Positions 14,289-50,781 of a stretch of DNA of 64,000 nt are shown here, one piece after another; position 1 is the first letter of the stretch, and the number at the start of each line of letters is the position of its first letter. Source of the stretch: a bacterium (GTDB taxonomy: Bacteria > Bacillota > Clostridia > Lachnospirales > Lachnospiraceae); NCBI GenBank assembly GCA_023663725.1, contig JAMPGX010000008.1, positions 16,477-80,476 of the forward strand. Direction: 5' to 3'. The position numbers and the translations under genes are program-made. Below the pieces are notes generated by a model. It was not told the origin of the DNA, searched no databases, and saw nothing but the letters and a program-made list of their open reading frames with translations.

Positions 14289-14314
14289 GCAAGCCCTCCT
14301 TGTTGTCAATCTGT

Positions 14315-14546
14315 TTACTTTGCTAGTGTCATTGTGTACATTGTATATTCCAACGCGGGCACGCTCTCGCTTCGTTCTCGCCGTAGCGGTACATAAGATG
14401 CTATAATACAGCATCGAGGGTTGCTAGCAACCCTAGGTACCGACGGCTCGTGGTGTTACGGTTGCAAACCGTAACACGAAGCCCGCTTATGGAATATACA
14501 ATATACACAATTCGGTACTGGCAGTAATGGGTTTCGCAATTGTTTA
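14315..14546 (-). mobile_element. MITE-like structured element, copy A (one TIR lost)
   Basis: Reverse complement aligns to 49995..50204; TIR TTTCGCAATTGTTTA at 14532-14546; two extra hairpin inserts. Confidence 0.85.
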
Positions 14547-14558
14547 AATATGTTTTAT

Positions 14559-14710
14559 TAGGCATTTGTAAAACTTAGTTACTTTGCTAGTGTCATTGCG
14601 AACATTGTATACTTCAATGAAGGCACGCTCTCGCTTCGTTCTCGCCGTAGCGGTACATAGGATGCCAAAAAATGGCATCGAGGTTTGTTAGTAACCTTGG
14701 TACTGACGGT
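14559..14710 (-). mobile_element. MITE-like element, partial copy B, tandem to copy A
   Basis: Near-identical core GGCACGCTCTCGCTTCGTTCTCGCCGTAGCGGTACATA; degenerate TIR TAGGCATTTGTAAAA at 14559; 12 nt from copy A. Confidence 0.75.
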
Positions 14711-14753
14711 GTCACATGATCTGCAATAATTTAATGGCTCTATAAATTGAAAG

Positions 14754-18414: not shown

Positions 18415-18444
18415 GTTGTACTACCTCTCTGTCTATCTGATGAT

Positions 18445-18587
18445 TAGGTAATTGCGAAACGACTCTTTTCTGGAACAGGGAATGGGCAATATATACAAAA
18501 TAAGGGCGACTTGCCACTGCATCGGAGCCCGTTTTTGTATATATTGACCAGTCCCGTCACTTGCGGAGAGAGTTTCGCAATTGACTA
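18445..18587. mobile_element. 143-bp MITE-like element, copy C (same TIR family, different internal palindrome)
   Basis: TIRs TAGGTAATTGCGAAAC / GTTTCGCAATTGACTA; 11-bp direct repeat TATCTGATGAT at 18434-18444 and 18588-18598. Confidence 0.88.
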
Positions 18588-18620
18588 TATCTGATGATGT
18601 AAAAGGCGATGTCCGGAGGC

Positions 18621-31805: not shown

Positions 31806-32165
31806 TTACCTTGGTATCAGATCATTCATCTTGAGTATTTCTTCTATTGTATCCATGCCGTCCTGCAATCTTGCGAGTTTCTTGTTGGTTTCTTTTTCAA
31901 AAAGCTTTTGCGAAAGCTGTAATTCGTTCAACTGTTCCTGCATTTTGTCCTGCTTGACTTCCATTGCATCCATGCGATTTTCCATCCTATCAAGCCTGGA
32001 ATCCACTTTGTCAAGCCTGGAGTCCACTTTGTCAAGCCTGGAGTCCACTTTGTCAAGCCTGGAGTCCACTTTGTCAAGCCTGAAATCCACTTTATCAAGT
32101 CTGGAATTCACTTTATCAAGCTGACCGATAATTTCCTGAAACATTTCTTTGGTTTCCTTGTCCAT
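31806..32165 (-). CDS. 119-aa coiled-coil protein with (LDKVDSR)n heptad repeat
   Basis: GGGAGG RBS; in-frame 21-bp repeats. Confidence 0.85.
   Translation of the reverse strand: MDKETKEMFQEIIGQLDKVNSRLDKVDFRLDKVDSRLDKVDSRLDKVDSRLDKVDSRLDRMENRMDAMEVKQDKMQEQLNELQLSQKLFEKETNKKLARLQDGMDTIEEILKMNDLIPR
31990..32121. repeat. 21-bp tandem repeat, 6 copies plus a partial
   Basis: Unit TCAAGCCTGGAGTCCACTTTG, head-to-tail with no spacers. Confidence 0.95.
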
Positions 32166-49092: not shown

Positions 49093-49408
49093 TAGGCGAT
49101 TGTGAAACTGTTTATTCCCGCGAGCAATGAGGAAAATAGCCATGCTCGCATGGATATTTGACGAATATCACGAGGTTCAAATCCCCTGTTACTTGTAGTG
49201 GGGTCTTTGATTGCCAGTACCGAATTGGACATAGTGTATTTTCCATAAGCGGACTCTTTCGAGCTGTCGGTACTTAGCGAGGTTTGCCGAATTCATTCGG
49301 CACGAGCTTAGTACCGTTACAGTGAGAACGAAGCGAAAGCGTGTCCGCGTTGGAATATACACTATGTCCAATGACACTCGCAAAGTAACCAAATTTCGCA
49401 AACGTCTA
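49093..49408 (+). mobile_element. MITE-like element, copy D (older, with ~100-bp hairpin insert)
   Basis: Degenerate TIRs TAGGCGATTGTGAAA / TTTCGCAAACGTCTA; flanks TAAACGATTCTG and TAAACAAGTCTG match 10/12. Confidence 0.8.
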
Positions 49409-49457
49409 TAAACAAGTCTGTCCCCCAAGGAGACATAACCTGATAACAGATAAAGGA

Positions 49458-49901
49458 GTGTGCAAGACAATGGAAGACGATACAATCAAACTGCTGAGGG
49501 AGTGCAACGCAGGGGTGAAAATGGGAATCACCTCATTGGATGATGTGATGGAGCATGTGAAGGACGAGCATCTGAAGGAGCTGCTGATTCAGAGTAAGGA
49601 GACTCATTCCCAGCTGGGCAGCGAGACACATGAATATCTGACAAGATGCCACGACGAGGGCAAGGAGCCCGCGGCCATGGCAAAAATGATGTCCTGGATG
49701 AAGACCAATATGAAGCTGGGCGGCGAGGACTCCGATCGGGTGGTGGCTGACCTGGTGACTGACGGCTGCAACATGGGGGTCAAGTCCCTGTACAAATATC
49801 TGCATCAATACCAGGCGGCCGACCAGGACAGCAAGAAGCTGACGGAAAAGATCATCCAGGCCGAGGAGACTCTGATCAAAGATCTGCGGGAGTATCTTTA
49901 G
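49458..49901 (+). CDS. Ferritin-like four-helix protein (DUF2383-like)
   Basis: Two helix-pair repeats (ECNAGVKMG / DGCNMGVKS); family call is tentative. Confidence 0.65.
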   Translation: MCKTMEDDTIKLLRECNAGVKMGITSLDDVMEHVKDEHLKELLIQSKETHSQLGSETHEYLTRCHDEGKEPAAMAKMMSWMKTNMKLGGEDSDRVVADLVTDGCNMGVKSLYKYLHQYQAADQDSKKLTEKIIQAEETLIKDLREYL

Positions 49902-49947: not shown

Positions 49948-49976
49948 TTGACAGCTGGAAAAAATTTGCTTATACT
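49948..49976 (+). promoter_or_regulatory. Sigma70/sigmaA promoter of the downstream gene
   Basis: TTGACA-17-TATACT. Confidence 0.75.
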
Positions 49977-49994
49977 GAGGATAGAGATAATTCA

Positions 49995-50204
49995 TAGACA
50001 ATTGCGAAACTCTTTATTGCCAGTACCGAATTGTGTATATTGTATATTCCATAAGCAATGCCCTTTCGAACCGTCGGTACTTAGATGCTGTATTTAGGCA
50101 TCTTATGTACCGCTACGGTGAGAACGGAGCGAGAGCGTGCTTGCGTTGGAATGTACAATGTGCACAATGACACTCGCAAAATAACTGGCTTTCGCAATTG
50201 TCTA
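49995..50204 (+). mobile_element. 210-bp MITE-like element, copy E (intact)
   Basis: Perfect 15-bp TIR TAGACAATTGCGAAA / TTTCGCAATTGTCTA; perfect 12-bp direct repeat AGAGATAATTCA at 49983-49994 and 50205-50216. Confidence 0.93.
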
Positions 50205-50238
50205 AGAGATAATTCAGTTGGAAAGGAAGTGGATTTTG

Positions 50239-50781
50239 ATGGGACTGAGCGTGATGGGGATCGGCAGTATGCCTGATAATGCAAGCTACGGCTTATACGG
50301 TTCTGTCAGCGGCGCAGCGGGTACAGGAGCGGCGAAGCGGATGCTTCCAGTTGGCGCGGCGGACGCTGTCGGGGCAGCGGGCGGCTCCAGAGGAGTGGAG
50401 GACAGCCGTGCGGCCAAGCGCGTAGGCAAAGCGGAGTGCCAGACCTGCAAGTCGAGAAAATATAAGGATGGTTCCGATGAGATGGTCAGCTTCAAGTCGG
50501 CGACGCACCTTTCTCCCCAGGCGGCGGGGTCGGCGGTGATGGCCCACGAGCAGGAACATGTCTCTAACGCATACAAAAAGGCTGCGCTGAATGACGGCAA
50601 GGTGTTACAGGCCAGTGTGCAGCTGCATATGGGTGTGTGTCCGGAGTGCGGGCGCAGCTATGTGGCGGGCGGAACCACCAGTACCAAGATTCAGTACAAC
50701 GAGGACAATCCATATGAGAAGAATGCCAAGTCCCTTCAGGCGGAGGCGTTCAAGGGCAACAATGTGGATGTGGCCGTATAG
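50239..50781 (+). CDS. SprA-related putative zinc protein
   Basis: CQTC, AHEQEH (HExxH), CPEC; GAAAGGA RBS; family call is tentative. Confidence 0.65.
   Translation: MGLSVMGIGSMPDNASYGLYGSVSGAAGTGAAKRMLPVGAADAVGAAGGSRGVEDSRAAKRVGKAECQTCKSRKYKDGSDEMVSFKSATHLSPQAAGSAVMAHEQEHVSNAYKKAALNDGKVLQASVQLHMGVCPECGRSYVAGGTTSTKIQYNEDNPYEKNAKSLQAEAFKGNNVDVAV

Follow-up and report, generated by a model that had tools for sequence, protein, structure and literature searches.

The window (i.e. the whole stretch of 64,000 nucleotides that was analysed) corresponds to contig C48 of the host genome, labelled G000, of which the assembly comprises 3.63 Mb in 49 contigs at 50.6% G+C. Towards its right part a gene is preceded by a promoter-like site and a Shine-Dalgarno (SD) sequence, with a 210-bp element (copy E) placed between the -10 box (49971-49976) and the ribosome-binding site (RBS; 50220-50229). 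The sequence TAGACAATTGCGAAA stands inverted at both termini of copy E (15/15 match), and the element is enclosed by a direct duplication of its target. Together with four further copies, its location is given in Table 1. The original prediction had listed these five copies, with perfect 15-bp terminal inverted repeats (TIRs) and a perfect 12-bp target duplication (TSD) for copy E, an 11-bp duplication for copy C and a decayed 10/12 duplication for copy D. All five copies proved to be real and each of these repeats was recovered, the perfect 11-bp duplication of copy C being TATCTGATGAT and the 10/12 pair of copy D being TAAACGATTCTG / TAAACAAGTCTG. With up to three mismatches allowed, the TAGACAATTGCGAAA 15-mer occurs eight times in the window, compared to 1.46 times on average and 4 times at most in shuffled sequence.

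Table 1. Coordinates, in the window, of the MITE copies and of the features surrounding copy E
Feature	Position	Strand	Remarks
MITE copy A	14308-14546	-	decayed IRL-side end abuts the SD of a minus-strand gene
MITE copy B	14559-14715	-	truncated, profile positions 70-219; 12 nt from copy A
Sister MITE copy C	18445-18587	.	143 bp, same ends, other palindromic interior; 18434-18598 including TSDs
MITE copy D	49093-49408	+	older; extra 102-bp insert
Promoter-like site of the gene downstream	49948-49976	+	TTGACA-17 nt-TATACT, 11/12 match; just 5' of the insertion
Left TSD copy of MITE E	49983-49994	.	AGAGATAATTCA, 12/12 match with the right copy
MITE copy E	49995-50204	+	210 bp; whole element forms one long hairpin
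IRR-type TIR of copy E	49995-50010	+	TAGACAATTGCGAAAC; compare IRR of the IS, TAGGTAATTGCGAAAC
Conserved apical structured core of copy E	50050-50150	+	P1, two-part P2, variable tip hairpin, mini-hairpin
IRL-type TIR of copy E, RBS-facing	50190-50204	-	
Right TSD copy of MITE E	50205-50216	.	AGAGATAATTCA
SD of the target gene	50220-50229	+	GGAAAGGAAG; 15 nt from the end of copy E
ATG of the target gene	50239-50241	+	

Folded as RNA, copy E reaches -93.9 kcal/mol on the + strand (z -9.4) and -77.4 kcal/mol on the - strand, and scanning found neither a sigma-70-like promoter nor a terminator within it. Only two open reading frames (ORFs) of at least 80 aa overlap copies D and E, i.e. a 98-aa frame at copy D and the 5' extension of the gene downstream of copy E; the former, a TTG frame on the minus strand (49189-49485) that crosses the boundary of copy D, is taken as spurious. 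The SD abutted by copy A is CCCTCCTT as read on the + strand. Copy D carries its extra 102 bp (49109-49210) between the left end and the stem; this segment contains two small hairpins, and three weaker copies of this segment are found in the genome (C22:151058, C1:89676 and C14:45991). No tRNA was detected in the segment, which probably represents a further small repeat lodged within the MITE. A repeat scan of the window also returned seven tandem 21-nt units, TCCACTTTGTCAAGCCTGGAG, at 31960-32148.

With an nhmmer profile built from the copies, 134 MITE loci were found in the 3.63 Mb of G000 (98 near-full and ~ 36 fragments), such that the repeats occupy ~ 0.8% of the genome. Copies measure 177-252 bp, share 70-95% identity with copy E and have a 16-nt end consensus of TAGRCRWTTGCGAAAC. 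The 143-bp sister family, to which copy C belongs, has 12 near-full copies in the genome, several of them 97-100% identical, and its ends are the same as those of the 210-bp MITE. At C4:1397-1502 a chimeric copy is present, its left part belonging to the 210-bp and its right part to the 143-bp family, which shows recombination or template switching between MITE families with common ends. The nearest copies in public genomes come from MAGs labelled Acetatifactor sp., which makes an Acetatifactor (Lachnospiraceae) the probable host. A blastn comparison of the MITE consensus with phage and plasmid collections gave no match. The family shows the features by which MITEs are recognised: it is shorter than 500 bp and has no coding capacity, it possesses TIRs and TSDs, it is multi-copy and variably present or absent, and it has the ends of an autonomous insertion sequence (IS), which is described below. 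Both the MITE repeats and this IS break short-read assemblies of Lachnospiraceae, and both are left unannotated by current pipelines.

Among the 59 copies with both ends recognisable, 13 are flanked by exact duplications (three of 10 bp, five of 11 bp, four of 12 bp and one of 14 bp), and 22 by duplications of 10-14 bp with at most one mismatch, compared to only 0.7% when the flanks are combined with shuffled partners. The duplicated target DNA is 70% A+T, against 50.6% G+C for the genome. In a comparison between species, the insertion point of copy E aligns gap-free in four sister species (G404, G389, G410 and G427), which lack the MITE and in which the same TTGACA-N17-TATACT is followed by 40 nt and then the ATG; the distance from promoter to ATG in these species is exactly that of G000 minus the MITE and minus one copy of the duplication. 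Furthermore, at least three MITE copies are identical over their ends and thereby break the assembly, and the contig ends C28/C25 and C5/C10 are linked by matching duplications (TTATATGAGA and TATATCGGGTAA). Such near-identical copies point to recent activity. The view put forward from the window alone, of a non-autonomous transposon family with target duplications and insertions of differing age, is borne out, with duplications of 10-12 bp, by the frequency of the latter (22 of 59 versus 0.7%), by the uninterrupted site, proposed as a check in sister strains and found here in all four of these sister species, and by the identical, assembly-breaking copies. It could be argued that the repeats are immobile, being either REP-like regulatory repeats or small-RNA genes of one family that spread through recombination or duplication, as their high copy number, intergenic location, strong fold and conserved core would fit such elements. 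However, precise direct duplications (10-14 bp) of unrelated targets, the clean empty site in the four sister species and ends in common with a transposase-bearing IS make this explanation very improbable.

The autonomous element is present in the same genome. Relaxed searches for the ends returned mostly noise, yet exposed orphan ends at C44:1649-1664 and C33:131-146, which led to an IS of 1755 bp that consists of C44:1-1664 and C33:1-146, joined through an overlap of 55 nt. Its IRL reads TAGGCGTTTGCGAAAC and its IRR GTTTCGCAATTACCTA, i.e. the IS carries the same 16-nt ends as the MITE (TAGGCGTTTGCGAAAC / TAGGTAATTGCGAAAC), of which the left end is of the IRR type and the right end of the IRL type; because of this match, the MITE is seen as the non-autonomous partner of the IS. 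The transposase ORF is intact (485 aa, C44:70-1524), the IRL, which is the end beside the start of the transposase, precedes TGAAAGGAGG and a GTG start by 15-16 nt, and no sigma-70-like promoter was found at the IRL end. In the assembly the IS is divided between two contigs and no duplication is common to its flanks, which means that a second IS copy or fragment exists in G000, to which the C33 end probably belongs. Other genera yielded 17 full-length copies, which measure 1745-1767 bp and share these 16-nt ends, and perfect duplications of 9-12 bp flank four of nine full-length copies in one set and seven of eight in another. Of 301 genomes of the family, with each genus represented by one, 33 contain homologues of the transposase, and in complete genomes there are several identical copies. 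More than 3800 homologues are present in public protein data, many of them on contigs of ~ 1755 bp and named at most 'transposase', and others reside on plasmids of Roseburia, Butyrivibrio, Agathobacter and Clostridium, where they are mostly unannotated. In the MITE-bearing relatives G001 and G014, both of which are draft genomes, no assembled transposase was found.

The earlier reading of the window was correct in that it contains no matching transposase, such a transposase being encoded elsewhere in the genome, at C44:70-1524. The search for long elements with these TIRs around a transposase, which it had recommended, yielded the 1755-bp IS, both in G000 and in other genera. What does not hold is the statement that the combination of ends and duplications is unassignable to an IS family, since the same genome contains an IS1182-like IS of 1755 bp which has these 16-nt ends and makes duplications of 9-12 bp. 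With the parent IS identified, the interest of the element as an unassignable transposon is removed; it is a MITE of an IS1182-related IS and no new kind of transposon. Pairs of ends at most 6 kb apart (C11:163912-167619, L121 and L092) were considered as candidates for long elements and rejected, because they enclose housekeeping genes between separate MITEs and no transposase.

The length of the duplications (10-12 bp) had at first led to the guess that a transposase of the IS4 family (IS231-like) mobilises the MITE family, as the IS4 and IS231 groups give duplications of 10-13 bp. The sole PF01609 match above cut-off in the genome, however, is an ISAs1-like transposase on C43 with unrelated ends (CCAGGTTAAAC...), and the IS with exactly the MITE ends itself makes duplications of 9-12 bp, as a result of which an IS4-type parent deserves hardly any credence. 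The ISAs1-like IS (C43:1123-2623, with a 437-aa transposase and 18-nt inverted repeats CCAGGTTAAACTTATAAA) lies beside a PIN-like toxin gene and is unrelated to the MITE. With respect to other repeats in G000, a second copy of the IS1182-like element, which has diverged, is represented by its end at C19:1-53, and for at least four other repeat families contigs break off after 54-55 nt of the repeat (CACGACAAACGCATGA..., GGGGCTGTGAAAAAAGTCCCC..., GAATCAATTTCGCTGT... and CTGTAACGATT...). As the shortest contig is at least 3.2 kb, IS interiors are largely missing from this assembly.

Against Pfam, the 485-aa transposase matches DUF772 above cut-off (E 4e-11, 43 bits) and DDE_Tnp_1 below it (E 7e-4, 19.8 bits versus a cut-off of 23), while PF13751 was not detected in the same search. 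Its only significant NCBIfam match is IS1182 (NF033551; E 6.6e-22), at 78 bits versus a cut-off of 270, and relatives at 51-69% identity likewise match this model below cut-off, at 46-76 bits. The IS resembles IS1182 and IS1272 in having an N-terminal DUF772, one ORF, a length of ~ 1.75 kb and terminal inverted repeats, but it differs from the IS1182 model in score (46-78 bits against 270), and NCBI names the relatives only 'transposase'. The transposase being far under the IS1182 cut-off and also below the Pfam DDE cut-off, IS1182 is, at the level of sequence, the nearest family to the IS rather than one of which membership is demonstrated. Members of the IS1182 family are heterogeneous: they are single-ORF elements of ~ 1.3-1.95 kb with inverted repeats and a duplication length that varies between members. 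The IS described here, with its 1745-1767 bp, 16-nt inverted repeats and 9-12 bp duplications, agrees with this format.

Taken together, the element is very probably a gene-less MITE of ~ 210 bp that has kept only the 16-nt ends of the 1755-bp IS1182-like IS and is moved in trans by its transposase. In this mechanism, the 485-aa DUF772/DDE enzyme would mobilise the MITE by making staggered cuts, presumably 11-12 bp apart, in AT-rich DNA, the repair of which would create the duplication. A comparable arrangement is that of the ISMac2-related MITEs of Methanosarcina acetivorans, which have inverted repeats of 25-26 bp and duplications of 0-4 bp (PMC3852290). These elements too are short (160-170 bp), gene-less and multi-copy, carry the ends of an autonomous IS of the IS1182 type and are mobilised in trans. 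The present MITE family differs from them by its 16-nt ends and its duplications of 10-12 bp, and neither RBS-proximal targeting nor a conserved structured core figures in the MITE table of PMC3852290. A description of the element was not found in the literature searched. A MITE of which the parent IS can be identified is of an ordinary kind; what is not ordinary is its targeting and its structured core.

Both the IS and the MITE are situated ~ 15 nt upstream of GAAAGGAG. The reconstructed target consists of the duplication, then ~ 4 nt, then (G/A)AAAGGAG, then 6-10 nt and the start codon, the consensus 3' of the duplication being NNNN-GAAAGGAG. For 50 of 78 MITE copies in G000 the first SD-like hexamer is found at +12 to +24 of an element end, versus 2.3% of random genome positions, whereby the spacing peaks at +17 (13 of 78 copies), with 31 of 78 copies at +15 to +19. 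These spacing statistics rest on simple ad hoc ORF and SD pattern rules for gene calls, and p-values overstate the significance, given the relatedness of the copies in one genome. It is the IRL-type end that faces the SD in 37 G000 MITEs and the other end in 14 (24:13 in other species), i.e. there is a bias which is not absolute. For the full-length IS, on the other hand, the IRL faces an RBS within ~ 20 nt in 18 of 18 copies (one in G000 and 17 in other genera), which places the transposase gene of the IS divergently from the target gene.

This pattern could originate from the choice of the site or from selection afterwards. If insertion into AT-rich DNA were near-random, without site recognition, the RBS-side positions would represent the survivors of selection. 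The A+T-rich duplications in a genome of 50% G+C, the short intergenic space and the partial orientation bias of the MITEs would all be compatible with this. Yet the spacing is sharp to one nucleotide, the same spacing and end orientation recur in all 18 full-length IS copies, including identical (and therefore recent) ones in complete genomes, and an IS of 1.75 kb between promoter and RBS should do more harm than it would at many intergenic sites. Given the single-nucleotide sharpness and its occurrence in identical recent IS copies, target recognition is favoured over survival bias, which we consider unlikely. We infer that the transposase recognises the RBS as its target, and it may be the transposase complex itself that reads the RBS sequence asymmetrically.

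Insertion near gene starts is also a property of IS900 and its relatives (IS110 family, Mycobacterium avium group), which insert in a specific orientation near the RBS or start of target genes. Enzymes of the IS110 family are DEDD transposases, and the elements are without classical inverted repeats or the type of duplication seen here. The resemblance is thus in outcome only: the DUF772/DDE enzyme is non-homologous, and with this enzyme, inverted repeats and duplication all present, the element falls outside the IS110 family. IS1272, for its part, targets hairpins, which it replaces without duplication (PMC5678879), whereas the present elements leave duplications of 9-12 bp beside RBSs. Targeting of SD sequences at a fixed distance and in a fixed orientation, by a DDE-type IS and its MITEs in several genera, is an unusual property, and insertion directed to the RBS might be exploited as a tool for placing insertions at the starts of genes.

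The interior of the MITE is more conserved than its ends. Its core contains helix P1 (GCAGGYAC/GUGCCUGC) and a mini-hairpin (GC-GAGA-GC), and a scan of public genomes with a 16-nt invariant stretch of the core returned 119 loci, of which ~ 95 are true matches. These belong overwhelmingly to Lachnospiraceae (Blautia, Eubacterium, Oribacterium, Robinsoniella, Acetatifactor and others), in addition to Anaerovibrio. Across the loci the 16-nt ends and the core of ~ 100 nt are kept, and the 25-40 bp stem between them is wholly different in sequence with its pairing maintained. In an alignment of 43 diverse sequences, 95.8% of the cells for the 20 consensus core pairs are paired, versus just 12-48% in slid registers, and compensatory double changes are seen in 15 of the 20 pairs (72 cells), which was equalled by none of 500 shuffles. 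Variation in P1 is wobble-compatible on the + strand (25 UG and 11 GU pairs). The + strand also folds better in 68 of 95 copies in G000 and in 66 of 73 cores from other species, and it is the sense strand for the gene on the IRL side. Searches of Rfam 15 gave no match over the window at gathering thresholds, and at E up to 10 only chance-level matches over copies D and E. An anti-SD-like CYCUUUC stretch in the G000 lineage of the core was considered as an explanation and rejected, since the alignment, inspected by eye, shows that it is not kept in other lineages.

The interior could be needed as DNA, either to bind the transposase or some protein of the host, or as a single-stranded or cruciform hairpin during transposition. 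A near-perfect palindrome over the whole element could indeed extrude as a cruciform, the core travels with the ends through many genera, and the interior of the 143-bp family is palindromic as well. However, no copy of the core was found in the full-length IS, which transposes nonetheless, such that the core is dispensable for transposition by this enzyme. Moreover, the changes in P1 keep G.U pairs on the + strand, where the other strand would have A.C mismatches, and together with the GAGA (GNRA) tetraloop on the + strand this indicates an RNA that is read from that strand, as does the better + strand fold in the cores from other species. A role at the DNA level is accordingly given a small, though appreciable, chance.

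As RNA, a MITE positioned between promoter and RBS, like copy E, would be transcribed within the mRNA leader. Its interior may have been selected for an autonomous fold, into a hairpin that is very stable and bears the conserved core at its apex, and such a self-folding interior would leave the RBS, 15 nt away, unpaired, as a result of which the insertion in the leader would be tolerated. A specific further function of the core is possible. Tentatively, and with a likelihood that we consider low but not trivial, the MITE might even be a vehicle that puts a conserved structured RNA (with AGCGAGAGCGUGCCUGC invariant) into mRNA leaders, in sense orientation and 15 nt upstream of the SD, the delivered RNA featuring three covarying helices and the GNRA mini-hairpin. 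If this were true, ~ 100 host genes would share a mobile cis-acting leader module, for instance a stabiliser, a ribozyme, a site of processing or an element that binds a protein or ligand. They would then form a post-transcriptional regulon built by a transposon and linked to a DDE transposase for which the RBS is the target that it reads. Covarying throughout the family, absent from Rfam and biased to the strand that comes to lie in the mRNA leader, the core may represent a new cis-acting RNA that transposition has spread among abundant gut bacteria.

Other bacterial repeats near genes fold in a similar manner. The Correia/NEMIS elements of Neisseria, RUP, ERIC and bcr1 are palindromic repeats of ~ 100-200 bp, of which hundreds occur near genes, where they are co-transcribed and form long hairpins; the MITE is like these Correia/NEMIS-type elements in being palindromic, multi-copy near genes and able to fold into a long hairpin. 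Correia elements duplicate TA, and to our knowledge their parent transposase is unknown. We also know of no co-transcribed bacterial MITEs with a covarying multi-helix core that is conserved across a bacterial family.

Some of the cores in other species are without recognisable ends. In L006, L007, L008 and L009, from other species of the genus, the core forms the tip of perfect hairpins which are long (25-45 bp), differ in sequence from the MITE stems and show no recognisable IS ends, and the core of L008 appears to sit inside a hairpin resembling a bidirectional terminator, between convergent genes. Such end-less cores at the tip of a hairpin are present in G000 too, at C1:59866-59947 and C14:10637-10731. 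These may be older lineages of which the ends have decayed, or they may represent an independent element. Finally, the same core was encountered in Negativicutes from gut and rumen (L013, L054, L117 and L122, from MAGs and isolates of Selenomonadaceae, Anaerovibrio and Veillonellaceae), which suggests horizontal spread beyond the Lachnospiraceae.
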